From a virus (lineage: Duplodnaviria > Heunggongvirae > Uroviricota > Caudoviricetes), in the IMG/VR virus record IMGVR_UViG_2563366953_000002, positions 1-49,559 of that record: a stretch of DNA of 49,559 nt. One strand, 5' to 3'. The notes beneath the pieces are model-generated. The model saw nothing but the letters and a program-made list of their open reading frames with translations, was not told the origin of the DNA and ran no database searches. A program made the position numbers and the translations under genes. Of the stretch, positions 1,553-43,001 are shown piece by piece. Each line of letters opens with the position of its first letter. Positions within the stretch are counted from its first letter, which is position 1.

Positions 1553-1741
1553 TCACGAGGACAGAATTTTCTCGCAATTAAAATTTATCAGTTTTACTTT
1601 CTGTTCTCTGGAAACGCCATCTTCTTTTTTCCCTGAGAGCATTTTTTCGCATTCTGATTTCGTTAATTTAGATTTTGAATATCTTGTCCAGTTAGTAGGT
1701 GTGTCACCTTCCTTTTCAATAGTGGCGGTAATTTTATACAT
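1553..1741 (-). CDS. hypothetical small protein
   Basis: ORF 1553-1813 trimmed to the internal ATG at 1741, which is preceded by GGAGGTG and abuts the stop of the upstream gene. Confidence 0.35.
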   Translation of the reverse strand: MYKITATIEKEGDTPTNWTRYSKSKLTKSECEKMLSGKKEDGVSREQKVKLINFNCEKILSS

Positions 1742-1943
1742 GAACACCTCCATTATTATTTCCAGTAGTTCGTTTATTCCATCTTGCAAGTGCTTCTTTT
1801 TCACTTCCACCATAACCGGTTCGGGATTCGCATCCGTTACACTTCGCTCGGTAATATCCTGAAATGGCTTTCACCGTTACTGATGGACAACCACAAAATG
1901 GACATGGTTTGACTTTTTCATACCGCATTGTCTTTTTTCTCAT
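1734..1943 (-). CDS. Lar-family restriction-alleviation-like protein
   Basis: 69-aa product with a KPCPFCG...C.GC...EA..RWNKR pattern that I recall as typical of Lar-family small zinc-ribbon proteins; sits in the int-proximal part of the early operon. Confidence 0.6.
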   Translation of the reverse strand: MRKKTMRYEKVKPCPFCGCPSVTVKAISGYYRAKCNGCESRTGYGGSEKEALARWNKRTTGNNNGGVHV

Positions 1944-1991
1944 AAAATAAAGTTTTGTTATGGCGGTGAGGCTACACCGCCATAGTAAATA

Positions 1992-3055: not shown

Positions 3056-6000
3056 TCAGATGCTCAGTGCTTCAAGACGACGAAGATCAAAGTCGTTTAA
3101 TTCGTCGGTATAACTTTCGGTAATCGGTGCTGGCCAGTTGTTTGTCTCCAGCGCTTCGTTTATCTGTCGTAGCGTCCGGCGATATTCCTGTCGACCAAGT
3201 TCCAGGAGTTCCTGCGAGGCTTCCACGACTGCCACCCAGTGATAGCCAGCATCTTTGTTGACGAAGATCCAGAAAAATTTGTCCAGGTTTGCCACATCGC
3301 AATACATTGCGGCGCTGAGGTGATAATCACGCTCAATAATTTCACGGTGCAGGCGATCTTTAAGTCGTTCCTGCCGCACATAACCGAGGCTGACTGACTT
3401 CACGTCAGCGCAAATGCTTTCGTATGGCAGCCGGATTTCGATATCAGGACGGACCCTAATTTCCAGCCCGGTTTCTTCATCAAACCCGAAATAGCTGATT
3501 TCAGATTTGCGATCCGGGTGGTTGAGTAGCCTTGCTGCATCGGTATTGTTTTGCAGTGCCGCGTGAATATTTTTTGCCTGTTCATACATATCCGGACTGA
3601 TAAACGTTTTCCCGGCGTTTTCTTCTTGCTGGCGTTTTTGCCAGTCCTCCAGTGTCACCAGGTCCGGGCGAATTTTCCGTGCGATTTCGGTTAATTGCTC
3701 TTTTGTGCCACTGATGTTGTAAGGCAAAGATTTAGCACGTTCTTTTTTTGCCAGTTCTGGGTCTACAGTTTCAATTTGATCCAGAAGCTGCTCCCGTGCT
3801 CCACTGGTTTTCAACAGAGGAGGGAGGCTTGCGTTGTATTCTTTAATACAGGCTTTCATTGCTGATGCTGTGTGTTTTTCCCCCTCAGGAATACGCCGAA
3901 ACTCCTCCGGAAGCGAACCGTAAAGGATGCCTGTTTCTTCGGCCCCAGCGCTTACCGACAGTGGCTGTATAAGAGTGCTGTTGTAGCTTTCGATCCACTC
4001 TTTCATCTGCTCTGGTGTCATCAGTGATGGCAGACTGGCATTATGTTTTTTAATGATGGTGATCAGTTCGTTAGAAGTAGTAACCACATATTCAGGAACC
4101 GGTACCGGAATGGCATATTCATCAGCGAATTTATCCGTTTCCAGAACATAGCTGTGAATGATCCGCCCACGCAGCAATGCATCACTTTCCTCGTTCGGGA
4201 TAGTTCCGGCAATGTGCCGCCCGTGGTAATACATCAGACTGATGCGGGCATCCTTCAGCATTGTGCTGCTTATTCCGTTGGCGGAGTGATAAACCTCGTT
4301 CGGGAGGTTTTCATAGCGACCAGGCTCGAAATATGACGGCCACATGATTTCAGTTGCTACATGAGCTGACGCTTCACCAGTTTCATCACTGCAATCGTGA
4401 TGCGGATGGTTGCCAGCGTTCTCCTTGTGCGGATGTTCAGCGCCTTCCATTTCCTCCGGATCTTTTTCCTGAGATTCATCCAGATTTTCTCCATCGAATG
4501 TTTCCTGGTATGTTGCGTCGCCCATCACCGCACCACAGTCAGGGCAGTTATCCCCGCCAGTCTGACCGCAGGCATTGCAGACTATTTCCGGTTCCCGTTG
4601 CACTACTGGCTCAGGTTGTTTCACATCCTGACTGGTTTTTTCCGTTTCTGGCTGGTTCTGGTTCACAGAATCGCGAGTCTGGATCCCTTTAACCCATTTC
4701 GGATCATTCGGGTCGCTAATTCCGTCAACAAATTCACCACGTGATGCAGCAAGCAATTTGTCGGCATCGACAGGATTTTTTGATGGAATGTTTTTCCGGG
4801 CTTCATGGAGCTCTTCCCGCAGTTCCTGATATTTCGCATCAACAGATTTTACCTGTGACTGAGCATCCAGCGGCTGCGTGTTCTGATGATGTTCAGTTGC
4901 ATCCGGTTCCACTGTTTCAGCCGTTGCCTGTTCATTTGCCATTGCGCAAGATGGTTGCGGTTTTTCTTCATCATCCTGTTTTTCTTCTGCTACACGCTGC
5001 GGCATTGGGGCAGAGGAGCGACCGCAGGCAATATCCACGATTTCCGGATCAGGGTTGGCATGATCGGTTTCAGTCAGCACCCTGCTCAGATATTCGGTGA
5101 CACGGTGGTGGGTAGCCTCGATACCAATTGGTGCTTCTTTTACGGACGCAACCACAATGGCGCGGGAATAATCCAGCCCGCCAGGCATGGTGATGAATTT
5201 GTCGCGGAAAACAGAAAAGGGCGGTTTATTTTCAGCGATAATTTCCTCAATGCGTTTAGCGTGTGCCGGATGAAGGTTATAGATGTCCACGTCCATTGAA
5301 CGGGCCAGTACGCCAGTGGCTACGTCGCGCGCCAGTGACGTAAGATCGTGGACGAAACCTTCGCCGCGATCGGTGAGGTTCCCGCCGCCAGCATTAGCAC
5401 CGGAAGCCGTGCGAGTGATGCGTGAAACACGATTCCCTTTTCGCCATTCTTTTGTCAGAAGACCGCGATCAATGTGTTCGGTATCCAGCCAGGCTGAAAT
5501 GAAATTCTTAAATTCATAGGGCTGATGTTTTTTCGTGATAGAGAAAACCGCCTTAATTGCATCAGTCAGGCGGAGCAGGGCGGCATTATCCAGAGTTGTC
5601 GGTTCTGCCATGCCGCGTATGGCCAACAGCAGATTCTGGACATAGCTGTTTTCCTGGTCCATCTCAAGAGCAGTAATGTGTTCGCGTTGTTCACGGGTGG
5701 CATGATGCAGGTATTTCCGATCCCCGGCCGCATACGTAAAAATGTGCAGAAGACGCTGTGTGAACCGCAAAGTGGCTACAGAGACTTCGCAATCCTGGCA
5801 ATCCCCGTGGGCGTCTGCCTGCGCGTTTTCTTCCTGGCCTCCCGCCAGTTCTTTGGTTTCCTGAGCATTATCCTGGTGGTTAACGTCGTCTGGCGCTGCA
5901 CCCGGTTTTAGTTCCCAGGTCATGGAGTCTTTGCTGAGTTGATAGCGTTCACTCCAGGTAAAATCGATCTCACCTTCAGGGGGCAGGTCATTAACGACAG

Positions 6001-6175
6001 GAAAATTAGTTGCAATAGCTTTAAAATAGTTGCTCAGTTTTTTACCTGACTTAACGATCAGGTAGTCCAGAGTGGCACAGGTTGATTCAAAATCGTCGCT
6101 TGCCCACAGGACGACGTCAGGCTCACCGGATGATTTTTTCGCTTTCCGTAAAAGGAAGAGTGGTTTTGTGCTCAT
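3056..6175 (-). CDS. RecE-like exonuclease (exodeoxyribonuclease VIII-like)
   Basis: 1039-aa ORF with ATG at 6175 after GAGG. Acidic low-complexity N-terminal half with a Cys cluster; the C-terminal domain has a PD-(D/E)xK-like arrangement (..[16 protein letters not shown]..). Paired with the Bet/RecT-like gene as in recE-recT modules. Confidence 0.65.
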
Positions 6176-6624: not shown

Positions 6625-6801
6625 TTAAAGTTCGTGTGCCATCTGGTCTTTTTCGGCACAAGCTGCACTGCAATATTTTCTCGGTTCGTCTTTTGATAAA
6701 GTCCCGTGCATGAAGTGAAGCATTCTTTCAATAGCTTTACTTTCTTCAACGTCTTTTTTGCAAAGGTGGTAAGCACATTTTATTTTCTTAGTCATCACCA
6801 T
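6625..6801 (-). CDS. small Cys-rich protein, possible zinc-binding (YdaE-like)
   Basis: 58-aa ORF hand-translated (too short for the ORF track): [16 protein letters not shown]...[17 protein letters not shown]. Its start overlaps the stop of the upstream KilR-like gene. Confidence 0.4.
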
Positions 6802-7016
6802 GACTCCGCCTTTACAGGTAAACCATCACGACCGAGGAAGACTTTAATCATGCGGTCAGTAATGCATGTTTTTGTGGTCAGGTTACGAATATAAAGTTTT
6901 CGCTTTTTAATATTGTTTGCCGAGGCAATATATGTCCGGCCTTCATGAAGAACATAATCGCCAGGAGTCACACACTGACGTGGTATTTCATCAGTTCCAA
7001 AGTGATGAGCAATCAT
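6795..7016 (-). CDS. kilR: KilR-like cell-division inhibitor
   Basis: 73-aa product from the ATG at 7016 (GGAG 8 nt upstream): [46 protein letters not shown]... matches my recollection of Rac prophage KilR. Confidence 0.55.
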
Positions 7017-15035: not shown

Positions 15036-15367
15036 TTAACAACCTTGATTGTAACAAATTAGCTAACTTTGATAGTTTATTAAAAACTTTATGCGTACGC
15101 AAAAACTATCAACCTCAGGAGGTTAGTTGCTATTCTATTTGCGAGCATTGTCAGTGAAAGAGTTGGCATGGATATACGTGATAGGTAAAATCATTGCGGG
15201 TGCTTGAGGCTATCTGCCTCAGGCATGAACACCAAAAGGCAGATAGAGAAAAGCCCCAGTTAACATTACGCGTCCTGCAAGACGCTTAACATTAATCTGA
15301 GGCCGATTTCATGCTAGACACATGTAGGTTAGCCTCTTACGTGCCGAAAGGCAAGGAGAAGCAGGCT

Positions 15368-15523
15368 ATGAAGCAGCAAAAGGCGATGTTAATCGCCTTG
15401 ATCGTCATCTGTTTAACCGTCATAGTGACGGCACTGGTAACGAGGAAAGACCTCTGCGAGGTACGAATCCGAACCGGTCAGACGGAGGTCGCTGTCTTCG
15501 TAGACTACGAATCTAGAGAGTAA
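15368..15523 (+). CDS. hok: Hok/Gef-family type I toxin
   Basis: 51-aa product MKQQKAMLIALIVICLTVIVTALVTRKDLCEVRIRTGQTEVAVF... matches my recollection of Hok/Gef toxins nearly residue for residue. The ORF track reports the same frame from 15311 as a 70-aa ORF whose extra N-terminus is probably not translated. Structured leader upstream and hairpin plus U-run downstream. Confidence 0.8.
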   Translation: MKQQKAMLIALIVICLTVIVTALVTRKDLCEVRIRTGQTEVAVFVDYESRE

Positions 15524-16591: not shown

Positions 16592-16881
16592 TGGTGGACT
16601 TACGTAAAGCGACGCGGGGGCAGATGTGCACCGTCAGAATTCCTGGCTACTGCAATCACGATCCGGAAACGTCTGTGCTGGCGCATTACCGACTGGCGGG
16701 AACGTGCGGAACAGCGATAAAGCCACACGATATGCAGGCAGCGATTGCCTGTAGCTCGTGCCACGATTTAATCGACGGGCGGGTAAAAACCAGCGATTAC
16801 ACCAAAGAAGAATTACGCCTGATGCATGCAGAAGGTGTTTTTCGCACACAAGAAATCTGGAGAAAGGAGGGATATTTATGA
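16591..16881 (+). CDS. Cys-rich nin-region protein (YbcO/DUF1364-like)
   Basis: 96-aa ORF; ATG overlaps the upstream stop (TAATG); several Cys/His clusters (..CTVRIPGYCNHD.., ..CSSCHDL..); size and position match YbcO-like proteins upstream of Q. Confidence 0.45.
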   Translation: MVDLRKATRGQMCTVRIPGYCNHDPETSVLAHYRLAGTCGTAIKPHDMQAAIACSSCHDLIDGRVKTSDYTKEELRLMHAEGVFRTQEIWRKEGYL

Positions 16882-17414
16882 TTTACCCAACGAATACAGG
16901 AAAAAGCGGAGAACACCTTCGTCTCACCACGCTGGAAAGTGTCTGGATTCAGGGAAAACTACGTATGTGGGGGCGCTGGTCGTATATTGGCGGCGGCAGG
17001 TCAGGGAATATGTTTAACCAGTTGCTGGCATCCCAAAAAATGACAAAAACAGCCATCAATGAAGCCCTGCGCAGATTGAAAAAAGCGGGAATTGATAAAC
17101 CAGAGTTGGAAGCATTTTTGCGTGAGATGATCGAAGGAAAGCAAAAAAGCTGGTTAACTCACTGCACTGATGCAGAGGCACTAAAAATTGATAGTGTTAT
17201 AGGTGAAGTTCTGGCGGATCATCCAGGACTACTAAATGTCCTGAGTCAGCGTTATGTGGGGCGAGGGATGAGTAAGAGAAGGATGGCAGAGTTATTAAAC
17301 GAACAGTACCCAGAGTGGGCGTTGATTACATGCCGACGTCGTGTTGAGCAGTGGTTGCGTGTTGCTGAGTTCATTTTGTATTCACCTATGAGAGAAGCGT
17401 TCGATTATGCTTAA
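16878..17414 (+). CDS. Q-family antiterminator paralog 2
   Basis: ATG at 16878 overlaps the upstream stop, after AAGGAGG. Shares the WG.W...HCTDAEA...LSQRYVGRGMSKRRMAELLN...RRRVEQWLRVAEFI architecture with paralog 1 and QuuD; lies upstream of the tRNA and lysis genes. Confidence 0.55.
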   Translation: MIYPTNTGKSGEHLRLTTLESVWIQGKLRMWGRWSYIGGGRSGNMFNQLLASQKMTKTAINEALRRLKKAGIDKPELEAFLREMIEGKQKSWLTHCTDAEALKIDSVIGEVLADHPGLLNVLSQRYVGRGMSKRRMAELLNEQYPEWALITCRRRVEQWLRVAEFILYSPMREAFDYA

Positions 17415-17778: not shown

Positions 17779-17854
<76 letters not shown>

Positions 17855-17857
17855 TAT

Positions 17858-17932
<75 letters not shown>

Positions 17933-19082: not shown

Positions 19083-19350
19083 CATTCCCGGATTGCTGAA
19101 TGTAGCGTTATGCACGGTTATCGTGCTGACGCTCTTTTTTTATCGTCGCCGTGATTCCAGACATAAACCGCTGATGTCATGGCTGGCCTGGCTGCTGATG
19201 CTGCTGTATGCCTTTGCGCCCCTCAGCTATCTGTGTGGTCGCCCGTTAGCAACGGGCTGGCTGGAAGTGCTTTTTAACCTGCTGTTCTGCGTGCTGGTGA
19301 TACGCGCACGCGGGAACGTCACAAAAATCTTTGTATTACGAAGGCGCTGA
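19072..19350 (+). CDS. small membrane protein (holin/antiholin-like)
   Basis: ATG at 19072 after AGGAGG, overlapping the upstream stop; 92 aa with two or three hydrophobic helices and a basic C-terminus. Confidence 0.4.
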   Translation: MLSNIPGLLNVALCTVIVLTLFFYRRRDSRHKPLMSWLAWLLMLLYAFAPLSYLCGRPLATGWLEVLFNLLFCVLVIRARGNVTKIFVLRRR

Positions 19351-19351
19351 T

Positions 19352-19897
19352 ATGAAGTCGAAAGATGAAATTTTTGACGAAGTTCTGGGAAAAGAGGGCG
19401 GTTACGTCAATCACCCGGATGATAAAGGCGGACCGACAAAATGGGGTATTACGGAAAAAGTCGCCCGCGCTCACGGATATCAGGGCGATATGCGTGACCT
19501 GACACGCGAACAGGCGCTGGAAATCCTTGAGGCGGATTACTGGTTCGGACCACGCTTTGATCAGGTGGCCGCATTATCCTCTGATATTGCTGCAGAGTTG
19601 TGTGATACCGGTGTGAATATGGGGCCGTCCGTAGCATCGAAAATGCTCCAACGCTGGCTGAACGTTTTCAACCTGCAAGGCAAATTGTTCCCGGATATGG
19701 ACGCAGACGGGCGTATCGGCCCCCGCACGATTAATGCACTACGGACTTATCTGCAAAAACGTGGCAAAGACGGCGAACTGGTGATGCTGAAGGCGCTGAA
19801 TTGCACGCAGGGCGACCGCTATCTGGAGCTGGCAGAAAAACGCGAGGCCAACGAGTCGTTTGTCTACGGCTGGATGAAAGAGCGCGTAGCAGTTTAA
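19352..19897 (+). CDS. endolysin, GH108-like with peptidoglycan-binding domain
   Basis: Product carries EGGYVNHPDDKGGPTKWGIT, CDTGVNMGP and DMDADGRIGPRT, which I recall as signatures of the GH108 lysozyme plus PG-binding family found in phage lysis cassettes. Confidence 0.75.
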   Translation: MKSKDEIFDEVLGKEGGYVNHPDDKGGPTKWGITEKVARAHGYQGDMRDLTREQALEILEADYWFGPRFDQVAALSSDIAAELCDTGVNMGPSVASKMLQRWLNVFNLQGKLFPDMDADGRIGPRTINALRTYLQKRGKDGELVMLKALNCTQGDRYLELAEKREANESFVYGWMKERVAV

Positions 19898-19998
19898 AAA
19901 CTGACGCTGAAGTGCTGAACACCCTCAACTCACGCAGGCTCTTTTCTGGGGTTACGATGAGTGAAAGTAAGGGGTACAGCATCAAGCATCAGATAGCA

Positions 19999-20038
19999 AA
20001 AACCCCGGCTGCTGGAACAGTCCGGGGTTTTTAGTTTT
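19999..20038 (+). terminator. intrinsic terminator (copy 1 of a repeated hairpin)
   Basis: ACCCCGGctgctggaacagtCCGGGGT followed by TTTTAGTTTT, after the endolysin gene. Coordinates approximate. Confidence 0.5.
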
Positions 20039-20123
20039 CACGTCAAAGAGGAAATTGTGAGTAGTGAGTACGGAGAAAATCCTCGTGGGAAAGTATAAAA
20101 GATTCTTTTTGAGGTTGTCCATT

Positions 20124-20237
20124 ATGAAAGGTATTGAAGTGGAAACTCCCGCGAGCCTTGATTTGACAAGGGCTGCGGCCTTTGCAATTCGCCTTGTGGC
20201 GGTCGCTGTTCTGATTTGGGCTGTGCGTTGGTGGTGA
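20124..20237 (+). CDS. small single-TM protein (possible lysis accessory)
   Basis: Hand-translated 37-aa ORF MKGIEVETPASLDLTRAAAFAIRLVAVAVLIWAVRWW; stop abuts the start of the lipoprotein gene. Confidence 0.25.
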   Translation: MKGIEVETPASLDLTRAAAFAIRLVAVAVLIWAVRWW

Positions 20238-20238
20238 T

Positions 20239-20421
20239 ATGAGCCGAAAACACTGGACACACAGAATGCCGCGAGCGGCGGCAAAATGGGCACTGGTAGC
20301 GATACTGGTGCCTTTTTTATTGGTGGGGTGCGTCAGCCTGGATAAGGCGCGCCAGCTTTTCGATACAGCTTCTCAGGTCTGCGAAATTGTTGATAGTGTC
20401 CGGCGGTGTATGCAGAACTGA
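20239..20421 (+). CDS. lipoprotein (o-spanin-like candidate)
   Basis: 60-aa ORF after GGTGGTGA; signal peptide ending in the lipobox-like LLVGC; short Cys-containing mature part. Confidence 0.4.
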   Translation: MSRKHWTHRMPRAAAKWALVAILVPFLLVGCVSLDKARQLFDTASQVCEIVDSVRRCMQN

Positions 20422-22732: not shown

Positions 22733-23824
22733 ATGAGCAGACCGGACTGGGGGGCGTTGCAGCAGGAGTATATTGCTGAATACACCCGCTCCGGTATATC
22801 TCCGGTGGCATGGTGTGAAGCAAGGGGACTGAATTACGCAACAGCCCGTCGTTACATCAAAAAACCTCCGAAAAATGCGCAGACAGAAATGCGCAAAACT
22901 GCGCAAAAAAGTGCGCAGAAAAAATCTGCGCAGACTGCGCAAAAGCGGAACGGAAAATCTCAGATAAAAAAGTCAGTATCCGATGCGTGCCTGAATGAGG
23001 GCGACGCAGAGGAAATTTCATTCTGTCCCGATGAATTCGGCATTTCTGACCAGCAGGCTAAGTTTGCGATGCTGGTTGCTCAGGGGAAAAAGCCGACAGA
23101 GGCATACCGACTGGCTGGTTATGAGGGGCAAGGTGCGACAGCTAACAGCAACGCCAGCCGTATGCTTAGAAATGCCAGGGTTTATCGTGCCATTAGCTAC
23201 TTCCGCAATCAGTACCAGAAACGCTATACCGCAGACCTGGATTTACTGGTGAGCCAGTTGATGGCTATTGTCCAGGCCGACCCCAATCAGTTGGCACAAT
23301 TTCGCCGTGTTAACTGCCGTTATTGCTGGGGCGAGAATCATCTCTACCAGTGGCGTGATATTGCAGAATTCGATAAGGCAGCGGCACAGGCCTCCAGAGA
23401 TGGCAAACCCGAGCCGGAATATGGAGGCCTCGGCTTTGTTGATAACGCCATACCCAATCCGGACTGCCCGAAGTGCTGCGGTGAGGGAACGGGGCAGCTT
23501 TATATGGCTGATACCACTCTGCTTGATGGGGAGGCGCGGCAATTATATGCAGGGGCAAAGCTCGGGAAATTTGGTGTTGAGATCCTGCTGGAGGATAAGG
23601 CTGCCGCCCGGCGCGAACTTATCAAGCTGATAATGGCGACGAAAGGAAGTTCTGCTGGTGGTGCAACTGACAGTCGCAATGATCTGGAGCTTGAAGGACT
23701 GAGGCTTCGCAACGAAAAGCTGCGCACTGAGATTGAAAACCTCAAAAAAGGCGTGGGTGGTGAGAATAACGAAATAATTATCCACAACTCTCTGCCGATG
23801 CCGGGAGTGGATAATGTCGATTGA
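22733..23824 (+). CDS. terminase small subunit
   Basis: Central ..AKFAMLVAQGKKPTEAYRLAGYEGQGATANSNASRMLRNARVYRAI.. resembles the terminase small-subunit HTH pattern; four-Cys zinc-ribbon-like segment; stop overlaps the TerL start. Confidence 0.6.
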   Translation: MSRPDWGALQQEYIAEYTRSGISPVAWCEARGLNYATARRYIKKPPKNAQTEMRKTAQKSAQKKSAQTAQKRNGKSQIKKSVSDACLNEGDAEEISFCPDEFGISDQQAKFAMLVAQGKKPTEAYRLAGYEGQGATANSNASRMLRNARVYRAISYFRNQYQKRYTADLDLLVSQLMAIVQADPNQLAQFRRVNCRYCWGENHLYQWRDIAEFDKAAAQASRDGKPEPEYGGLGFVDNAIPNPDCPKCCGEGTGQLYMADTTLLDGEARQLYAGAKLGKFGVEILLEDKAAARRELIKLIMATKGSSAGGATDSRNDLELEGLRLRNEKLRTEIENLKKGVGGENNEIIIHNSLPMPGVDNVD

Positions 23825-25142
23825 AATCTATCTCCCAAAACCTCATGAGGGGCAAATAGCTGCATGGACGGCGGCAATAGAAGAACGCTTCCACGCGGTA
23901 TGCTGTGGTCGTCGCTGGGGTAAAACGGTGATGCTGGTGAACATCGCTACCAGTTTCGCTACGCGGAAATTTGCCGTTCCTACCACCGGGCAACTTATCG
24001 CGGGTAGGGTGGGGATTTTTACCGCGCAATACCGCCAGTACCAGGAAATCTGGGATGAAATTAGCGCCGTTCTGCAACCGCTGATCCTCAGTCAGTCAAA
24101 AAATGAAAAGCGCATCATTCTCCGCAATGGGGGGCGCATCGACTTTTGGGTAACGGACAATAACAAACTGGCCGGGCGTGGGCGTAAATATCACGCTGTG
24201 CTGATTGATGAGGCCGCATTCACTAAATCGCCGGAAATGCTCGAGGAAATCTGGCCCCGAGCGATACGCCCGACGCTTGTCGATTACCGTGGCTGTGCGT
24301 GGGTATTTTCCACACCAAACGGTATCGACGAGAGCAATTTTTTCTACGCGATATGCCACGATGAATCCCTGGGATTTGTTATGCACCATGCGCCAACTTC
24401 ATCGAATCCGTATATTCCGAAAGAAGAACTGGAGGAAACGGAGAAGAAATCCGATCCGCGCGTCTGGCAGCAGGAATATCTTGCAGAGTTCGTAGACTGG
24501 TCCAAAGACGCGTTACTCGATGTCGATAAGCTGCTGGTGGACGGTCAACCAATTGAGATGCCGCCGTACTGCGACATGATTTTCGCAGTGATGGATACGG
24601 CGCTGAAAGGCGGGACCGAAAATGATGGTACTGGCGTGGTGTATTTCGCTTATGAGTCAACGTATTCGGACGAGCCAAAACTGACGATTATTGACTGGGA
24701 TGTGACGCAAATTAAAGCGTCATTGCTTCCTGAATATATCCCCGGCGTTTATGACAACCTCGAGCGCCTCGCGAAATTATGCCGTCCGCGTCTGGGCAGC
24801 CAGGGAATTTTTATGGAAGACGCCGCGATGGGGGCAATCCTCAACCAGAAGGCGGAAACCGAAGGCTGGGATATGACGCCGATTAAATCGGCACTGACCA
24901 GCAAAGGTAAAGACGAACGGGCGGTGATGGCATCCAGCTACCACTATCAGGGGATGTGCAAAATCGTCCGGGAGGCTTACGACAAGACCGTTTCATTCAA
25001 ACGTACCACCGCAAACCACCTCATTAAACAAATCGCCGGGTTCCACCTGGCAGACAAAGACGCGCATAAACGTGCTGATGACCTTTTCGATTGTTATACC
25101 TATGGATTGATTATCGCGCACGGTAATTACGCGGCGTTGTAA
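23814..25142 (+). CDS. terminase large subunit
   Basis: 442 aa; Walker A-like CGRRWGKT and Walker B-like VLIDEAA in the N-terminal ATPase region; canonical position. Confidence 0.8.
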   Translation: MSIEIYLPKPHEGQIAAWTAAIEERFHAVCCGRRWGKTVMLVNIATSFATRKFAVPTTGQLIAGRVGIFTAQYRQYQEIWDEISAVLQPLILSQSKNEKRIILRNGGRIDFWVTDNNKLAGRGRKYHAVLIDEAAFTKSPEMLEEIWPRAIRPTLVDYRGCAWVFSTPNGIDESNFFYAICHDESLGFVMHHAPTSSNPYIPKEELEETEKKSDPRVWQQEYLAEFVDWSKDALLDVDKLLVDGQPIEMPPYCDMIFAVMDTALKGGTENDGTGVVYFAYESTYSDEPKLTIIDWDVTQIKASLLPEYIPGVYDNLERLAKLCRPRLGSQGIFMEDAAMGAILNQKAETEGWDMTPIKSALTSKGKDERAVMASSYHYQGMCKIVREAYDKTVSFKRTTANHLIKQIAGFHLADKDAHKRADDLFDCYTYGLIIAHGNYAAL

Positions 25143-38060: not shown

Positions 38061-39067
38061 TGCGTTATTACCGACTGGAAATCATTAACCCTAAAACAGG
38101 CAAGCCGCCAGTGGATAGCAACGGAAATACCATTGGTCCGTTTGATACCAGCAGAACGCCGGGATGCGGGCTACATGTTGAATTTGATGTGGAGGTGGCT
38201 GGGCTTGATGTAGTGAATTCAGGAACGATGCTCACAATATACGGTTTGCCTATCGACATGCTGAAGCAAAGCGTGAGTTTGCAGGGGTGTCTGGTCCGTA
38301 TGAAAGCGGGCTTTGTTGAGGGATTGCCTTTGGCAAATCCACAGCAACAGGGTGAGGTAATTTATGGCGAAATTTATCTGGCCTATGCCAACTGGATCGG
38401 CACGAACCAGACCTTAAACCTGGTAATAAATCCAACCGTACGCAAAACAGATGATGGTAAACCGTTCTCTATCGAGGGAGAGGGGCTTAAAGGGGAAAAG
38501 GTTAGTGATGTAATCTCCCGTGCGTTGCAAAAGGCATTTCCGAATAAATTGATCGACTGCACAGTCAGTGACAGTCTGGTTTTACCAGAGCCGTGGAAGG
38601 GAACCTACGACAATATTGGGTCGTTGGCGATGGTAGTCCGTAGTGCTTCAATCGCAATGATGCGTAATGAAAGGTATAGCGGAGTCGCTATCAGTATTCT
38701 TTCCGACAGGATACGAATCTACGATAACGTATCGGCAAATTGGGGTGAGCCAAAAACAATTCATGCCCATGAACTGGTCGGGCAGCCGACATGGATAGCG
38801 CCGTTTACCGTCAGTTTCAAATGCCCCATGAGGGGCGACATAAGATGTGGTGATGTGATCAAATTGCCAGAGGGGCTTTATTCTGGCTCTGCGTCGATCG
38901 TGATGGCTAATACAACGGCACCCAGCGTTATCGCAAAAAATTCGACCACGTTTACCGGGAAATTTCTTGTGAAATCAGTCAGACACATTGGTTCGTATCT
39001 GACAGCCGATGGCGATGCCTGGGTGACGGTATTCGAGGCATATGCTGAGAACTGGGCGAGGGTGTAA
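38060..39067 (+). CDS. baseplate/tail protein (hypothetical)
   Basis: 335-aa ORF in the baseplate gene block. Synteny only. Confidence 0.35.
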   Translation: MRYYRLEIINPKTGKPPVDSNGNTIGPFDTSRTPGCGLHVEFDVEVAGLDVVNSGTMLTIYGLPIDMLKQSVSLQGCLVRMKAGFVEGLPLANPQQQGEVIYGEIYLAYANWIGTNQTLNLVINPTVRKTDDGKPFSIEGEGLKGEKVSDVISRALQKAFPNKLIDCTVSDSLVLPEPWKGTYDNIGSLAMVVRSASIAMMRNERYSGVAISILSDRIRIYDNVSANWGEPKTIHAHELVGQPTWIAPFTVSFKCPMRGDIRCGDVIKLPEGLYSGSASIVMANTTAPSVIAKNSTTFTGKFLVKSVRHIGSYLTADGDAWVTVFEAYAENWARV

Positions 39068-39780
39068 TGTCAAACGCTCAAAAAATACCGTTTCTCCGAA
39101 CGCTGTCAGAGATAATGACCAGTTCTGGTAACCAGCAAGCCGAGCTTAAAGGCCGTGAATTGCCCTGCCATGTTGTCGATGTCAGCGGGCAGATAGTGAC
39201 AGTTCAGTTTGATATGCTGCCGGAGGGGATCAACTTTCCGCAGATAACAATCCCTGTCGCCACATTCCCGTATATTCGTTACCCGATACAGCCGGGCGAT
39301 CGAGGAGTAACAATTGCCGCTGATGTATCACTGCGCGGTGTGTCTGGATTGGGAACCGGTATGGCGACGCTCTCTTACTCGATGTCGCTCACTCCACTGT
39401 TTTTCGTGCCACTGGCAAACAAGGACTGGTCCGACGAAGATCCGCAAAAAATAGTTTTGTACGGTCCGGATGGCGCGATCCTCAAAACAGAGGACGGCAG
39501 TAGCTCGGTAACGGTGGCACCGGAAGAAATCAGGCTAAAGTCGAAAGCTGTTTACCTCGAGGCCGAAGATATCTTCATGAACGGGAAAATTCATCTCAAC
39601 GGTCCAATCGTACAGGACAAAGAACAAATGAAGGATACAACCGCTTCGCTGATTGGCCCTCTCAAGGTCGAGAAAGATGCAGTTATCAACGGCGTGAGCG
39701 CCAGCGGCCACAGCCACGATGTGACTGGCGTTCAAAGCGGCGGCAGCACGATCACGTCGAAGAAACCAAATCCGGGTTAA
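39067..39780 (+). CDS. putative baseplate spike (gpV-like)
   Basis: 237 aa; N-terminal OB-fold-like pattern (..CHVVDVSGQIVTVQFDMLP..) and a Gly/Ser-rich C-terminus; position before the baseplate wedge genes. Confidence 0.4.
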   Translation: MSNAQKIPFLRTLSEIMTSSGNQQAELKGRELPCHVVDVSGQIVTVQFDMLPEGINFPQITIPVATFPYIRYPIQPGDRGVTIAADVSLRGVSGLGTGMATLSYSMSLTPLFFVPLANKDWSDEDPQKIVLYGPDGAILKTEDGSSSVTVAPEEIRLKSKAVYLEAEDIFMNGKIHLNGPIVQDKEQMKDTTASLIGPLKVEKDAVINGVSASGHSHDVTGVQSGGSTITSKKPNPG

Positions 39781-39813
39781 TACCGGCTCACTTTAAATTA
39801 CATCCATAAAGCG

Positions 39814-39850
39814 AAAGCCCCGGCTGCTGCAACAGTTCGGGGCTTTTTGT
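39814..39850 (+). terminator. intrinsic terminator (copy 2 of the repeated hairpin)
   Basis: GCCCCGgctgctgcaacagttCGGGGC followed by TTTTT; nearly identical in stem and loop to the element at about 20000. Coordinates approximate. Confidence 0.5.
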
Positions 39851-39995
39851 ATCAACAGAACAGTATTTGAAATGGCATGGAGATTACTCATGCAGCCAAA
39901 TTCTAGCGCACCTAAAGATAAATTTGGAGACGATTTGATGATTAAGGCTGAGACCACTCCGCAAGGAGCAATAAGGCTGCGAGGATAATCGCGGT

Positions 39996-40202
39996 ATGCC
40001 GAGGGATTCGTCACATACTTACGCCTGTTGCCTGGATCACTTGTACTGCATTAGTGGCGGGTACATTGATTTACCTGAAAAACTGATAAAGGAGTTACGA
40101 GAAATGGGCGAAAGATTACCCAACTGGAAATTCCTGTTGATATGGTGTGTGTTTTTCTTATTTGGACTATCCGCTTTGATTCAGGCGATCCGGTGGCGGT
40201 AA
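39996..40202 (+). CDS. small C-terminally hydrophobic protein, copy 1
   Basis: 68-aa ORF; an internal ATG near 40103 is preceded by AAAGGAG; C-terminus ..LIKELREMGERLPNWKFLLIWCVFFLFGLSALIQAIRWR is one TM helix. Confidence 0.35.
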   Translation: MPRDSSHTYACCLDHLYCISGGYIDLPEKLIKELREMGERLPNWKFLLIWCVFFLFGLSALIQAIRWR

Positions 40203-40321
40203 TTTTTACATAACTTTACATATGGCAATGAAAAAACAACAAATTACTTCATGGATGATTTGCTACGTGAACTCAAGCATAGAATGACATGGTGTTAAGT
40301 AATTGTTACAAAGGGATTGGT

Positions 40322-40468
40322 ATGAAGTTTCTTTTCATTGTTTATAAATTACTAGTTGAGATTCGAGTTATGGGCGAGAAATTTCCCAATTGGAAGTTTT
40401 TACTTATCTGGTTGGTCTTTCTGATTCTGGCGTCTGGATATTTTGTTGGGCAGATCCGATGGTGGTGA
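40322..40468 (+). CDS. small C-terminally hydrophobic protein, copy 2 (paralog of copy 1)
   Basis: Hand-translated 48-aa ORF (AAGGGA upstream): MKFLFIVYKLLVEIRVMGEKFPNWKFLLIWLVFLILASGYFVGQIRWW; conserved with copy 1 over about 40 residues. Confidence 0.35.
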   Translation: MKFLFIVYKLLVEIRVMGEKFPNWKFLLIWLVFLILASGYFVGQIRWW

Positions 40469-40475
40469 GGGCACG

Positions 40476-40823
40476 ATGAGGACATGGGGCCGCGTCACCG
40501 ACGTGAACGGCAATAAAAAATGGGTTGCTGTAGAATCTGACGCCAACGGTGATTTCTCCTACGGCTGGCTGACGACGCTCATTCAGACGTTAAAGCTGGG
40601 GGTGGGGGAGTCGCCGTTTTACGCGAATTACGGCATTCCAGCACAGCAGTGCATCGTGCAGCAGATTTACCCGGACTACTATGTGAACATGGTTCAGCAA
40701 CAGTTTGCCGGGTATTTTGCATCACTGGCAATTTCAAGGGTAGATGGGGCTGAGAACCCCACCTATAACATCGATGTTGTGTTTTTTAATGGGACCAGTT
40801 ACCGGATGCAGGTTCCGGTGTGA
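40476..40823 (+). CDS. putative baseplate protein
   Basis: ORF track start is TTG at 40443; ATG at 40476 follows GGTGAGG; 115 aa; lies between the spike-like and J-like genes. Confidence 0.35.
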
Positions 40824-41173
40824 GGCAAATTTTCGGGCATCAGTTGGGCCAGTGGCGTGTTAAGAAGTTCATCGCGTGGCATGACAATCCATCCACTTTT
40901 GCGTAGTAAGTGAATTGCCCATTCTGTGGTGATAACTGAGCCTGATTTGTGGTGCTCAATGTGGGTAACCGAGCCGTTTCTGACGCGCATGATGATGTCA
41001 ACATTCAGAGGGGATTGTGTGCTGGTGGTATCTTCGCGCAGCTTCTTCTCGCACTCGATGAAGTATCGGCGGATCTGGCGTCCTTTTTCGTTGCGCTCGA
41101 CCATTGCCAGTTCTTTGGCGGTGTCCAGGGTGAGGTGGTAGTCCTTGCGGCGGCGGCCTGGAGTTTTCGCCAA
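40799..41173 (-). pseudogene. antirepressor C-terminal-domain fragment lacking a proper start
   Basis: Frame opens with TTG directly after an in-frame stop, with no ATG or SD. The product (..[35 protein letters not shown]..) resembles the C-terminal domain of phage antirepressors, which normally follows an N-terminal domain. Confidence 0.45.
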
Positions 41174-41185
41174 ATTTGGCGAAAA
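41164..41185. repeat. perfect 22-bp palindrome TTTTCGCCAAATTTGGCGAAAA
   Basis: Read directly from the sequence; overlaps the 5' end of the antirepressor fragment at the border of AT-rich DNA; no flanking U-tract. Confidence 0.6.
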
Positions 41186-41213
41186 TAGAATGTAGTCTAA
41201 AAAAGTCTAACAA

Positions 41214-41753
41214 CTACTTATTTTCAGACACACATTTTTCAAAATTTTTTATCGAGTCATTGAAAACTGAATTCATTATCTCATAAGTTTTATGATCTAT
41301 CTTTTTGTCTAGATAATCTTTATTGTTTTTCTTTATTTTTTCCTTAGTATCAGTAATGGCTTTTTTACAAATTTGATAATTTATCTGCTGATCGTTTAAA
41401 CCGCCTCCATTGACAATTAGAGAAATAGCTGTATTCATGTCTTGTATATTGTAGGAATAGTGTAATGTGTCATTGGTTGGATGGCTGGGATTATCATAAT
41501 AAACATTACCGAATTTCATTAACATTATTCCCGATTTCCCATAAACAGAATCAGATAAGTATGCGGCATTCATATTTCCGGCAGTAAAATTATCAGTATG
41601 ACATATAAAACGCCGACCATATTGAAGCTGTAATTTATGCATAGCATCGTTGCAGGCAGCTCTTATTAGACGGGTATGATTATTGTCTTCTTCTTAAGCG
41701 CATACTGAAAATGAAAGAGTGGATGCAATTAGCAATGAAATTAATTTCTTCAT
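41214..41753 (-). pseudogene. AT-rich secreted-protein gene interrupted by one in-frame TAA after the signal peptide
   Basis: Hand translation: ATG at 41753 gives MKKLISLLIASTLSFSVCA, then TAA (41694-41696), then the same frame continues EEDNNHTRLIRAACNDA-MHKLQ... through the 142-aa ORF 41214-41642; four Cys in the mature part. Confidence 0.45.
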
Positions 41754-41774
41754 AAATTACCCTTGAGATTAACT

Positions 41775-43001
41775 ATGTCAGAAATACCAATTACTATGAC
41801 CAGTGCGGGTGCGCAGCCTACGCCACCCAATGATTTGCTTGCGAATCTTATCACCAGGGTTGCTGAAAAAGTACCTGGATATACAGCCAACCTTCCGGCG
41901 GGACTTATTACAGACCTTGCCAGCACGGCAGTCGGGGCGGTGGCATTAATAGACCAGGCGCGGGTTGATCTTATTAACTCCGTAAGCCCATACGGCGCGA
42001 ATATTCCGTTACTGATGCAACTCGGAAACATTTATGGAGCACAGAAGGGATTAAGTACAAATACGGCGGTATACGTGGTGTTTGAGGCGTTGCCGGGATT
42101 TGGTATCCCTAAAGGATTTGTGGTTGGAGACGGTAACTACCAGTATGCGGTTTCCCGCGATACGGTGGTGCCGGAAAATGGGCAGACTGAGCCAGTCTAC
42201 TGTGTGGCCACAACGTCAGGCTCATGGGCTGTACCGGAAGGGACCGTGACGCAGGTCATTACATCAGTACCCAAAGACCAGCCTGTAAAATGCACGAACC
42301 TTACCGCAGGAATGCCCGGTCAGGAGGCGCAGACGTGGGCATCTTACCGCGCCGAAGTCATGGAGTCCGGCATGTTTGGTGTGCAGGGAACACCGGATTG
42401 CTTTAAAGCGATGCTCAAATCAGTAAGCGGTGTGCGCGAAAACCTGATTTCTTTCCGGCAGTCGTCGCTGGGGAAATGGGTTGCGGTTGTTGGTGGCGGT
42501 GATCCGTATGACGTGGCTTATGCGATTTACAAATCTGTACCGGATATTTCGAAACTGACCAACGATGTAAGCAATCCATCCGGTGCGGCAGTGGAAAAAC
42601 GCACGGTTTCAATAACCGTTTCGCCGGACGTTTATCAGGTGCCGTTCGTTATCCCGTCATCACAAAACGTCATGGTGCTAATCACCTGGAACACGGTGTC
42701 TGATGATTATGTTGACCCGGCGGGTATTGCTATGGCTGTGCAGCAAAACGTTGCTGATTACATCAATTCTATTGAAGTCGGTCACCCGATAAATCTGCTG
42801 CGAATCCAGGATATTTTTACCAGCTCCGTAAAATTGCTGGTTGATGCGACGTTGATCTCAACAATCAGTGTGAGCATTGGTATTAACGGTCATATTGTTC
42901 TTCCGGCAAAAGACACAAGCCTGGTTTATGGCGATACCTATTCCTATTTTTCGACGGTGGCATCACAGGTTCAGGTCAATAAGTATGCAATATCTGACTG
43001 A
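41775..43001 (+). CDS. baseplate J-like protein
   Basis: ORF track start is TTG at 41763; ATG at 41775; 408 aa; followed by a gpI-like gene and tail fibres. Confidence 0.5.
   Translation: MSEIPITMTSAGAQPTPPNDLLANLITRVAEKVPGYTANLPAGLITDLASTAVGAVALIDQARVDLINSVSPYGANIPLLMQLGNIYGAQKGLSTNTAVYVVFEALPGFGIPKGFVVGDGNYQYAVSRDTVVPENGQTEPVYCVATTSGSWAVPEGTVTQVITSVPKDQPVKCTNLTAGMPGQEAQTWASYRAEVMESGMFGVQGTPDCFKAMLKSVSGVRENLISFRQSSLGKWVAVVGGGDPYDVAYAIYKSVPDISKLTNDVSNPSGAAVEKRTVSITVSPDVYQVPFVIPSSQNVMVLITWNTVSDDYVDPAGIAMAVQQNVADYINSIEVGHPINLLRIQDIFTSSVKLLVDATLISTISVSIGINGHIVLPAKDTSLVYGDTYSYFSTVASQVQVNKYAISD

Follow-up and report, generated by a model that had tools for sequence, protein, structure and literature searches.

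Two small genes in the baseplate region of a prophage, orfA and orfB, are, as judged from sequence and profile comparisons, diverged copies of phrog_6632, a widespread and uncharacterised phage family, of which rac58 (Rac-SA53), SEN34_23, EC_CP1639_39 (CP-1639), and WP_000459345.1 are all annotated as hypothetical protein. The window, that is, the whole stretch of 49,559 nucleotides that was analysed, contains an intact, Rac-type lambdoid myovirus prophage. We have high confidence in the descriptive part of this account, namely that these are real genes, that they belong to this family, and that the family travels as a mobile late-operon cassette. With regard to function, the reading we favour, at a probability of roughly 40%, is that orfA and orfB may encode late-expressed, membrane-active modulators of lysis or its timing that resemble type I toxins. 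The original prediction had named toxins, exclusion factors, and lysis modulators, which remains the right shortlist.

Small membrane-protein genes between two baseplate genes

The slot between the gpV-like and gpW-like genes (Table 1) spans positions 39781-40475, i.e., 695 bp at 41% GC, compared with 51-52% in the two flanking genes. The upstream gene is annotated as bppV or phage baseplate protein in Rac-SA53, E. coli W, and STEC711 and matches the Pfam GpV Apex motif weakly and below threshold (E 0.073, 13.6 bits, cutoff 20.8), and the downstream gene belongs to phrog_7986 (E=5.5e-63) and is syntenic across all Rac-type loci. A 700-bp lower-GC insert between baseplate genes had been proposed here; length and composition agree, but not all of this DNA is additional. 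In Rac-SA53 and pPE4, the closest phages, the flanking baseplate genes are indeed closer together, with only ~250 bp and one copy at the same site. Since one copy is the commoner state of the slot in related phages, only the extra ~445 bp relative to Rac-SA53 (41% GC vs 51%) count as an insert of deviant composition between genes that are neighbours in related phages. The gpV/gpW junction is a recurrent and hypervariable slot, which holds one to six stacked small-TM genes from at least four families and in which gain, loss, and decay are all fast; in the Rac-type prophage of TUM1881, it has no phrog_6632 member.

Table 1. Positions of the features discussed in the window
Feature	Position	Strand	Remarks
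Q antiterminator	16758-17414		Downstream genes all on plus strand
Second cassette, in the prophage's own lysis module	19996..20237	+	Hairpin, then 37-57 aa peptide ...LSIMKGIEVETPASLDLTRAAAFAIRLVAVAVLIWAVRWW
gpV-like baseplate spike gene, 237 aa	39067..39780	+	Upstream edge of slot
A-tract, G+C-rich hairpin, T-tract	39808..39853	+	Stem 39816-39844; terminator-like, marks cassette 5' edge
orf0, third small tail-anchored membrane-protein gene	39872..40086	+	Frameshifted in window
orfA, phrog_6632 member, 32 aa	40089..40202	+	MGERLPNWKFLLIWCVFFLFGLSALIQAIRWR; Shine-Dalgarno AAGGAG 40089-40094, ATG 40104
A+T-rich orfA-orfB spacer	40203..40321	+	Conserved along with the pair
orfB, phrog_6632 member, 48 aa	40322..40468	+	N-terminus differs (MKFLFIVYKLLV...); conserved internal Met at 40370
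gpW-like baseplate gene, 115 aa	40476..40823	+	Downstream edge of slot

Two small genes had been described in the slot, and both are present, but a third was overlooked, so that orf0, orfA, and orfB together make three small tail-anchored membrane-protein genes. The open reading frames lie where they had been placed, at 39996..40202 (68 aa counted from the first ATG, or 32 aa if ATG 40104 is the start) and 40289..40468 (59 aa, or 48 aa from ATG 40322). The first of these lengths does not stand: the initial 36 codons of the 68-aa reading, which begins at 39996, are the +1 frame of orf0 and thus an out-of-frame overlap, and the same alternative-frame peptide occurs in the diverged locus L238 with no family member attached. 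On this evidence, orfA is very probably real only as a 32-aa gene. The overlapped gene, orf0, is unrelated to phrog_6632, and the window therefore carries two phrog_6632 copies plus orf0, where most phages have one gene. It reads 71 aa from its first ATG or ~49 aa from ATG 39938. One G is missing after position 39970 in comparison with E. coli W, STEC711, and TUM1881, and restoring it gives ...GADKAARIIAVCRGIRHILTPVAWITCTALVAGTLIYLKN; the gene is intact in these three and in L238, with a pN/pS of 0.10 between E. coli W and L238. To judge from the reading frame, orf0 is inactivated in the window by this 1-bp deletion.

Both orfA and orfB share with phrog_6632 the length class, the xSKLIRELRxM..EKL..WKF motif, and the TM helix followed by an RWW-type end. 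Against the 45-position family profile, orfA aligns over positions 6-44 (E=1.4e-16) and orfB over positions 6-45 (E=3.5e-21). Compared with the family, orfA is without a leader and GTG start of its own and has RWR at its end instead of RWW; L172 and L238 contain parental forms that are intact (MIDLSKLIKELREMGERLPNWKF...RWW, complete with hairpin, leader, and GTG), and stand-alone 32-aa forms exist in Serratia (L102) and also among the cluster representatives. In orfB, the TM helix and RWW are kept and the N-terminus is replaced, while the 3' two-thirds are near-identical to rac58 and the RWW-TGA end stops 7 nt short of the gpW start. Junctions of recombination in the 5' segment were seen in STEC711 and in the window.

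The paralogy that had been suggested for the two genes was borne out by BLASTP (45% identity over 49 residues, E=6e-15) as well as by their common match to phrog_6632. The orfA-spacer-orfB unit is also present in L238, at a pS of ~0.35 from the window, and the same spacer separates orfA-type and orfB-type genes in E. coli W, STEC711, and L238. A recent local tandem duplication was ruled out, as the copies are only 45% identical and the pair is old enough to be shared with L238. Absence or non-conservation in related phages would have spoken against the genes; instead, 18 complete E. coli genomes have kept the pair, which is under purifying selection, with a pN/pS of 0.12 for orfA (counted from Met14 on) and for orfB (vs L238) and 0.08 for gpW.

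Peptide family and hairpin-led cassette

A search of 1.84e9 representatives placed the family in 42 clusters at 50% identity, all of 31-86 aa. A word-indexed protein search returned only 5 near-identical proteins. Full-length members have their own GTG or ATG start, an N-terminal xDFSKLIRELRxM helix, a TM helix, and the RWW end. AlphaFold2 models two helices (residues 2-20 and 23-47, mean pLDDT 79). The ~45-aa peptide would consist of a ~20-residue amphipathic and net-basic N-terminal helix, predicted to be cytoplasmic, and a C-terminal half in which one TM helix, bearing a small-xxx-small motif, is followed by the RWW tail, predicted at the periplasmic face. The single TM helix followed by RW(R/W) that had been noticed at each C-terminus was confirmed by Kyte-Doolittle maxima of 2.6 and 2.4 over 15 residues. 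At 32-48 aa and with a single TM helix, the two are small hydrophobic membrane peptides of the kind found among type I toxins.

The two parts of the coding sequence evolve differently. In codons 22-43, synonymous sites vary freely and amino acids are conserved, whereas in codons 1-18 and the leader, synonymous sites are frozen (S5 AGC 13/13, R12 CGA 13/13, L18 TTA 12/13). Met14 is invariant even in distant members, and codon 9 is only ever CGG or AGG, both rare, with GAG at codon 10, which places GGAG 9 nt upstream of Met14. As short-form-only genes also exist in the family, translation may begin at either of two in-frame starts and yield products of two lengths, which we regard as a candidate arrangement; frequent recombination of the 5' segment could also account for the frozen codons. 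Scans of both peptides and the sister families against Pfam, NCBIfam, and PADLOC returned no match (Pfam none even at E<=10), nor did a PDB sequence search or Foldseek against BFVD, and no description or functional study was found in the searchable literature by peptide sequence, by Rac-SA53, or among small ORFs of Stx lysis cassettes.

In its complete form, the cassette comprises a covarying terminator-like hairpin, a leader with a Shine-Dalgarno sequence, ~45 codons, RWW, and a stop near the next gene, its 3' end TGGTGGTGA abutting that gene with the stop 1-7 nt from the next start. The hairpin at 39808..39853 folds in RNAfold at -19.7 kcal/mol (plus strand) and -17.4 kcal/mol (minus strand), and every cassette-type family member is preceded by a homologous hairpin. 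In an alignment of 17 diverse copies, 96% of cells are paired and three pairs show compensatory changes, which none of 500 shuffles matched. It belongs to the cassette and not to the insertion slot, since in Sakai Sp15, where the slot carries ant as cargo, similarity stops just before the hairpin. A simple consensus scan for sigma-70-like promoters found none on the plus strand of 39500-41800, which includes the orfA-orfB spacer, or in L230.

For an antisense RNA, which had been suggested as something to look for, the signs on the minus strand are divided. A TGnTAxxxT element, a candidate extended -10, is present in Enterobacterales, L235, L230, and a G+C-rich Pseudomonas phage (GAT TTT there), just 1-4% of synonymous recodings score equally well in most lineages, and the bidirectional hairpin is likewise conserved in most of them. 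On the other side, the candidate -35 is weak (3/6 matches), and the element is absent in L233 and L234 and missing upstream of orfA and orfB themselves. Both genes lack the 5' segment in the window, so that an antisense mechanism could at best apply to orf0. Rfam gave no family on the cassette, whether the window was scanned at the gathering threshold or five related loci at E<=1, and the sole match nearby was a weak rimP-leader hit that amounts to the hairpin itself. In the published Hfq-CRAC list of Hfq-bound sRNAs of EHEC O157 Sakai, from which Hfq-independent RNAs would escape, none lies at a cassette: EcOnc10, EcOnc11, and EcOnc12 map downstream of Rz, Sp4 holds EcOnc52 and EcOnc35 at other positions, and EcOnc22, in the tail region of Sp15, is a separate antisense RNA.

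Distribution in late operons

In every case, the cassette points in the same direction as the late genes around it, and it resides in late operons or accessory islands of temperate phages. Of 5426 complete E. coli genomes, 869-1201 carry it between endolysin and Rz, and a genome may have as many as six copies. The commonest context, in phages with other tail types, is the lysis cassette, between endolysin and Rz; the order S-R-FAM-Rz was found in 62 fetched loci, behind three different endolysin types. It is carried in the lysis module by Stx1 and Stx2 prophages, among many others of E. coli and Salmonella, and the gpV-gpW location is that of Rac/SEN34-type phages. Lysis-cassette location is true for most family members and absent for orfA and orfB. 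Further sites lie behind tail fibres, in head modules, in accessory islands, and in islands before the terminase, and distant members adjoin HicAB, ParE, or RelB genes. The K-12 prophages Qin and DLP12 lack the cassette, for which reason no curated K-12 gene name applies. PGAP usually skips genes of the family.

The R-Rz slot is also filled by sister small-TM families whose hairpin and leader are the same. One of them is represented in the window by a second cassette, directly preceded by the endolysin (19331-19897), whose peptide belongs to phrog_4493 (E=3.3e-23) and whose stop lies 1 nt before a 60-aa lipoprotein-like gene (20239-20421). The pattern CGNTGGTGGTRA occurs three times in the window, compared with 0.04 occurrences expected.

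Functional readings and significance

Our preferred scheme is tentative. The cassette would insert co-directionally into late operons of temperate phages, and its peptides would be made only once Q-antiterminated late transcription reads through the hairpin, possibly from two starts and in two lengths. They would lodge in the inner membrane and there influence membrane events late in infection, either by affecting holin or SAR-endolysin triggering and lysis timing or by direct depolarisation, and in this they may resemble a type I toxin or a mini holin/antiholin. In the lysogen, they would be kept silent by the hairpin and possibly also by a cis-antisense RNA. The view of the cassette as late-operon cargo derives from its co-orientation, the short distance from stop to next start, the negative promoter scan, and the Q antiterminator; the link to lysis derives from the S-R-FAM-Rz loci, the E. 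coli counts, the sister families in the R-Rz slot, and the cassette behind the prophage's own endolysin.

There are precedents for such modulators. The P2 lysA product is a non-essential membrane protein that can tune holin timing. The family resembles dual-start holin/antiholin genes and accessory lysis-timing proteins (lambda S105/S107, S21 68/71, P2 LysA, encoded between endolysin and lysB, T4 RI, and BSPM4 ORF52) in its membrane anchor, in the position of most members in or beside a lysis cassette, and possibly in two in-frame starts, which may give a longer, more basic form and a shorter one. The likeness to holins and antiholins ends there: the family has a single TM helix, virtually no periplasmic domain, and a far smaller size than known holins, carrier phages already own a holin, and no similarity to known holin families was detected by sequence or profile (Pfam to E<=10, PDB, BFVD). 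A spanin role was ruled out, as there is no periplasmic domain. BSPM4 ORF52, a non-essential 64-aa single-TM phage protein that is encoded outside the lysis cassette, binds the holin, delays lysis, and is thus able to tune holin timing (PMC11657625), and hokW-sokW, a prophage type I toxin system, aids phage release (PMC8621323). Considering that the R-Rz, V-W, post-tail-fibre, and pre-terminase positions are classic moron or accessory sites, the lysis neighbourhood may be coincidental, and the occurrence of the cassette behind unrelated endolysin types makes a specific endolysin partner unlikely. Rapid turnover, stacked families, and frequent decay (the frameshifted orf0, the start-less orfA, and an 8-codon stub in Sakai Sp4) are more suggestive of cargo in an arms race than of a tuned part of the lysis machinery.

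Instead of modulating lysis, the peptides could be the product of a superinfection-exclusion or defence moron, which we consider somewhat unlikely. Expressed in the lysogen or early in infection, they would sit in the inner membrane and block incoming DNA or counter membrane-acting host defence, different paralogues having different specificities. HK97 gp15 is such an inner-membrane exclusion protein, encoded by a moron in the tail region. The hypervariable, fast-evolving slot with its stacked families, the accessory islands in which distant members lie beside toxin-antitoxin genes, and the lower-GC DNA inserted at recurrent, moron-typical junctions between genes adjacent in relatives would all fit. 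The layout, however, does not: in morons such as those of HK97 and HK022, a promoter precedes and a terminator follows the gene, whereas the terminator-like hairpin here lies upstream, no promoter was detected by the consensus scan before it or between it and the ORF, and the 3' end runs into the next gene, 7 nt from gpW. PADLOC gave no match either, and the periplasmic part comprises only 3 residues. It is quite unlikely that the cassette is a self-contained type I toxin-antitoxin module, with the hydrophobic peptide as toxin, which would act to retain the prophage or abort infection instead of taking part in lysis. A cis-antisense RNA of ~85 nt would start from the extended -10 (TGCTAAAAT, minus strand, CDS nt 8-16), span the start codon and Shine-Dalgarno sequence, and terminate at the hairpin as a bidirectional terminator.

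The resemblance to Hok, TisB, Ibs, ZorO, and SymE/SymR lies in a small hydrophobic peptide encoded by a self-contained, prophage-common, and sometimes tandem mobile unit, together with nucleotide-level constraint over the translation start; the layout of symE/SymR in particular resembles a cassette with an antisense RNA. Synonymous freezing exactly over the leader and codons 1-18, the retained minus-strand element, and the hairpin with its 5' A-tract and 3' T-tract agree with such a module, and the same prophage already carries hok/sok and ralR/RalA. On the other hand, no toxin promoter and no Rfam or sequence relation to these systems was found, the antisense -35 matches at only three of six positions, sister cassettes with other 5' coding ends have by eye no convincing antisense -10, the Sakai list holds no matching sRNA, toxicity and antisense RNA are putative here, and the cassette gene is co-directional within a late operon and translationally close-coupled to the next gene. 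It is very unlikely that the copies in the window are chance ORFs or remnants in decay that no longer have a function. The frameshift in orf0, the lost start and RWR end of orfA, an Arg inside the TM segment of the STEC711 copy, the variable orfB Shine-Dalgarno sequence among close relatives, and the lack of PGAP annotation point that way, whereas a pN/pS of 0.12 for both genes, at a lineage pS of ~0.35 and in the same range as the essential gpW, the intact 32-aa frame with its AAGGAG, and the conservation of the pair speak against it. A role in baseplate or tail assembly, or as a part of the virion, that is peculiar to the gpV-gpW junction is extremely improbable: the position between spike and wedge genes with tight spacing to gpW is its sole support, and the same family occurs at 87-89% identity between endolysin and Rz in lambdoid siphoviruses and podoviruses without such a baseplate, as well as at the other sites listed above, while the TUM1881 slot does without it. 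The proviso that homologues might be conserved virion components hence does not apply, as the family is not virion-specific.

Returning to modulation of lysis, a more far-reaching version, which we hold to be unlikely though worth stating, is that the RWW-peptide cassettes (phrog_6632, 4493, 1115, and relatives) might be unrecognised portable mini-lysis regulators or toxins with dual-start ~32/45-aa products, gated by terminator and cis-antisense RNA, that time membrane collapse. The cassette is also of interest as a coding 5' end with a second, nucleotide-level signal, comprising the hairpin, the frozen synonymous sites, and the invariant internal Met, and its RWW-stop also serves as the ribosome-binding region of the next gene.

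The family is small, easily overlooked, and very common, and in Stx1 and Stx2 prophages it occupies the lysis cassette, the very site that governs when the cell lyses and toxin is released. Should the peptides prove to be exclusion factors or toxin-antitoxin modules, a very compact and mobile class would be added to the systems of phage-phage conflict. If they alter lysis timing or membrane potential, they would matter for the release of Shiga toxin and for how pinholin and SAR-endolysin lysis is modelled, and if they are indeed mini-lysis regulators, the timing of phage and Shiga-toxin release would be set by them in about one-fifth of E. coli strains.

Small genes between gpV and gpW

An intact lambdoid prophage of the Rac type, with a contractile tail, makes up the window. 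Integrase, recET and ralR/RalA occupy its left part, followed by hok/sok (whose presence is indicated by the sok RNA match), the Q antiterminator, two tRNAs downstream of Q, two holins and an endolysin, and then by terminase, tail sheath, baseplate and fibre genes, the latter all on the plus strand. Over the region of interest, one E. coli chromosome matches at 100% identity and the E. coli W prophage at 99%.

The original prediction described two paralogous small membrane-protein genes, possibly encoding toxins, exclusion factors or lysis modulators, in a lower-GC insert between baseplate genes. This observation is confirmed with corrections, and its interpretation is partly supported. The gpV-gpW slot spans 695 bp with a GC content of 41%, versus 51-52% in the flanking genes. 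Both orfA and orfB are present, their similarity is far above chance (BLASTP, 45% identity over 49 residues, E=6e-15), and each ends in a single strongly hydrophobic segment followed by RWR or RWW. However, the slot holds a third gene, orf0, and the 68-aa form of orfA did not survive. It starts within orf0 in another frame, and the same alternative-frame peptide (MPWDSLHTYACCLDHLY...) occurs in the metagenomic relative L238, where no family gene follows orf0; the 36-codon extension is therefore a by-product of orf0. The remaining orfA has AAGGAG, 9 nt and an ATG at 40104. Compared with E. coli W, STEC711 and TUM1881, the window copy of orf0 lacks one G after 39970, which frameshifts a 71-aa gene; reinserting it restores ...GADKAARIIAVCRGIRHILTPVAWITCTALVAGTLIYLKN. 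The missing base could mark a true pseudogene, or the source assembly may contain a sequencing error here.

Coordinates of features in the window and in related loci
Locus	Feature	Position	Strand	Remarks
Window	RalA antitoxin sRNA	1557-1735		Rfam match
Window	sok antitoxin RNA	15198-15373		Rfam match
Window	Q antiterminator	16758-17414		
Window	two tRNA genes	17779-17929		Rfam match
Window	endolysin	19331-19897		
Window	hairpin of second cassette	~19996-20035		
Window	second-cassette peptide	stop at 20237		...AFAIRLVAVAVLIWAVRWW
Window	lipoprotein-like ORF	to 20421		60 aa; begins 1 nt past peptide; lipobox LLVGC; phrog_7528, unknown function
Window	gpV-like gene	39067-39780	+	left border of slot
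Window	orf0	39872-40086		
Window	orfA	40104-40202		32 aa
Window	orfB	40322-40468		48 aa
Window	gpW-like gene	40476-40823	+	right border of slot
Window	antirepressor gene and adjoining 142-aa ORF	40799-41642	-	antirepressor 5'-truncated, 124 aa
Rac-SA53 (L001)	sRNA-Xcc1	5946-6029	-	78 bits
STEC711 (L007)	sRNA-Xcc1	4956-5041	-	72 bits
Sakai Sp4 (L242)	hairpin, leader, mini-ORF, 37-aa gene	5100-5345	-	37-aa gene is ECs_1094
Sakai Sp10 (L241)	phrog_4906 gene	1825-1971		ECs_1966
Sakai Sp15 (L109)	phrog_4906 gene	23749-23895		ECs_5741
Sakai Sp15 (L109)	EcOnc22 slot	6680-6940		between gpI and gpJ tail genes

Profile matches to phrog_6632 (45 positions, function unknown; orfA E=1.4e-16, orfB E=3.5e-21) identify the pair as catalogued, uncharacterised members of this family, on which no publication was found in the literature searched. 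An AlphaFold2 model places helices at residues 2-20 and 23-47 (pLDDT 79). An alignment with four other prophages, a comparison that had been proposed as a check, revealed a polymorphic slot: a hairpin is followed by a single 45-aa family gene (rac58) in Rac-SA53, by orf0, a different small membrane-protein gene, with no family member in TUM1881, by orf0, orfA and orfB in E. coli W and the window, and by a 55-aa TM gene plus these three in STEC711.

Several peculiarities were noted around the slot. The antirepressor gene, which encodes 185 aa in Rac-SA53 and is a pseudogene in E. coli W, is truncated here and adjoins a 142-aa ORF of 29-33% GC without PHROG, Pfam or PADLOC match, and the region looks like a separate low-GC insertion in place of rac61/rac62. 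Strong sRNA-Xcc1 matches lie just upstream of intact ant in Rac-SA53 and STEC711; in the window, with its truncated ant, no match reached the gathering score. Across this region, the 'Actinobacillus phage vB_Apl-pPE4' (PP818812.1) shares ~95% identity with Rac-type prophages of E. coli, which casts doubt on its stated host. Two records labelled E. coli DH5alpha (NZ_CP026085.1, NZ_CM135829.1; ~4.83 Mb) carry the E. coli W-type prophage version, which suggests strain mislabelling.

A mobile hairpin-led cassette

Phage records matched by tblastn numbered 53, and 104 loci were fetched for the context survey. Two contexts dominate: holin-endolysin-family gene-Rz in lambdoid phages (62 loci, including H-19B, CP-1639, TL-2011c, many Stx1a/Stx2a/Stx2c phages and Salmonella SPN3UB), and the gpV-gpW junction in Rac-type and SEN34-type myoviruses (approximately 30). 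Further family genes follow gpI or a tail fibre gene (Izhakiella, Sodalis) or a 965-aa protein (Brenneria, Symbiopectobacterium), or lie within a Pseudomonas phage's tail-tip island. More distant members are flanked by MuF/DUF2513 and scaffold genes, or belong to islands ahead of terminase, beside HicAB, ParE, RelB and BrnA genes. Of 5426 complete E. coli genomes, 869 carry the endolysin-to-Rz version at ≥80% coverage and 1201 show some match, the highest copy number in one genome being 6; the window-type three-gene slot was found in 12, or 18 if the STEC711-type four-gene version is included; K-12 lacks the family cassette. PGAP mostly omits the gene or, if it is called, reports a hypothetical protein (WP_000459345.1). 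Searching 1.84 billion representatives exhaustively with HMMER returned only 42 clusters, all of 31-86 aa. The profile's N-terminal helix motif also matched 11 separate stretches of P0014 (1201 aa), probably a coiled-coil repeat protein.

All cassette-type copies share, from 5' to 3', an A-tract, a G+C-rich hairpin (AAAGCCCCG...CGGGGCTTTYT), a leader of ~25-35 nt containing AAGGAGAA, a GTG or ATG start, an ORF of ~45 codons and an RWW-stop end (CGN TGG TGG TRA), with the next gene starting 1-7 nt further. Hairpin pairing is 96% across 17 diverse copies, and three pairs show compensatory changes, the observed covariation being reached by 0/500 shuffles; the window hairpin folds at -19.7 kcal/mol. 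In Sakai Sp15, where an antirepressor is the cargo between endolysin and Rz, similarity to the endolysin-family gene intergenic sequence ends immediately before the hairpin, which assigns the hairpin to the peptide cassette and rules it out as part of the insertion site. The same hairpin and leader head other small tail-anchored peptides, several ending in (I/V)RWW (phrog_4493, phrog_1115 and a 48-aa MNINLGEW...VVRWW type), with arrays in both slots. One such cassette (phrog_4493-like) lies in the window's own lysis module, immediately behind the endolysin gene, spanning 19996-20421 with the next gene; no Rz-like i-spanin was seen in that module. In Sakai Sp4 and at least 27 IMG/VR loci (L121 and L136 among them), hairpin and leader precede an 8-codon mini-ORF (MGREVLSL) and a 37-aa ...AIRWW gene; the long form appears interrupted, leaving a stub and a short form. 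Antirepressor-cargo loci carry phrog_4906, a 48-aa single-TM protein unlike the family, immediately upstream of Rz, so a small TM gene ahead of Rz seems general in these lysis cassettes.

Selection on the protein and a second signal

L238 has six small ORFs in the slot: hairpin, leader and GTG lead into an intact orfA-type gene (MIDLSKLIKELREMGERLPNWKF...SIRWW), followed by the same A+T-rich spacer as in the window, an orfB-type gene sharing the unusual N-terminus of the window's orfB, orf0, a 38-aa Cys-rich ORF, the 55-aa gene behind a second hairpin and leader, and a 37-aa gene (...AIRWW). At a synonymous divergence of ~0.35-0.43 from the window, pN/pS is 0.12 for orfA (from Met14, the conserved internal Met), 0.12 for orfB, 0.10 for orf0 and 0.08 for gpW. 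The three small genes are genuinely protein-coding, and the pair is old and selected. We infer that recombination in the window lineage placed orf0 ahead of orfA, removing the latter's leader and start; the junction lies where the 3' end of orf0 (ACATTGATTTAYCTGAAAAAYT) briefly resembles the family 5' end (GTGATTGATYTTAGCAAAYTGA).

Across codons 22-43, 13 divergent representatives show free synonymous variation (V29, A34, G36 and R43 with four codons each, L25 with five), which indicates selection on the protein. Codons 1-18 are nearly frozen (S5 AGC and R12 CGA 13/13, L11 TTG 8/8, E10 GAG 12/12, L18 TTA 12/13, R9 only CGG or AGG). An internal start fits this pattern: even the most distant members all keep Met14, GGAG from frozen codons 9-10 lies 9 nt upstream, and short-form-only genes occur (e.g., directly past the gpV stop in Serratia L102), suggesting two products of ~45 and ~32 aa. 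A cis-antisense promoter fits as well, and the two readings are mutually compatible. The minus strand of CDS nt 8-16 carries an extended -10 (TGCTAAAAT). L235 retains it as TGCTAGAAT and L230 as TGATAAACT, and a G+C-rich Pseudomonas phage preserves it exactly, with the rare codons GAT TTT at that place; in most lineages, such a score is reached by only 1-4% of synonymous recodings. The candidate transcript would extend over start codon and SD as far as the hairpin, whose A-tract and T-tract are those of a bidirectional terminator. However, the -35 is weak, the extended -10 is absent in L233 and L234, and the element has neither an Rfam family nor a matching RNA in the Hfq-CRAC list for O157 Sakai. 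A third explanation is homogenisation by recombination, as junctions lie in the 5' segment in STEC711 and the window. Sakai Sp15 also contains EcOnc22, a published Hfq-bound sRNA (~85 nt) that runs antisense to the late operon; its intergenic slot holds a 39-aa non-TM ORF between two hairpins. It is a different element, yet it offers a precedent for antisense sRNAs at insert sites of late operons.

Possible roles of the peptides

Family genes are co-oriented late-operon cargo with a terminator-like hairpin in front, the prophage encodes a Q antiterminator, and no promoter for the small genes was detectable by consensus scan. The peptides would be silent in the lysogen and made once antiterminated late transcription passes through the hairpin. 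The basic N-terminal helix would stay cytoplasmic (net +2 vs +1 at the C-terminal end) with RWW at the periplasmic interface, and the G/S-xxx-G/A motif of the TM helix may mediate helix-helix contacts.

P2 LysA is an accessory membrane protein that tunes its holin. BSPM4 ORF52 is another (PMC11657625), and a prophage type I toxin aids phage release (PMC8621323). Such precedents, together with recurrence beside endolysin and spanin genes, rank a late membrane-active modulator of lysis or its timing first, tentatively (probability about 0.4). The peptides would work like holins and antiholins, yet cannot be classed with them, having only one TM helix and no similarity; nor do they class as morons, the terminator being on the wrong side and no promoter having been found. 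Superinfection exclusion or defence cargo, favoured by turnover, stacking and toxin-antitoxin-island neighbours, is possible and somewhat less probable than lysis modulation. A bona fide type I toxin-antitoxin module is unlikely: the peptides may act as such toxins do, yet a toxin promoter was not found and the antitoxin RNA is only a candidate. Decayed remnants are improbable, and a baseplate role is effectively excluded by the family distribution.

So far as we found, the cassette architecture, its abundance within the lysis cassettes of prophages from pathogenic E. coli and its dual nucleotide-and-protein constraint have not been described, and the function of the cassette is directly open to simple genetics.
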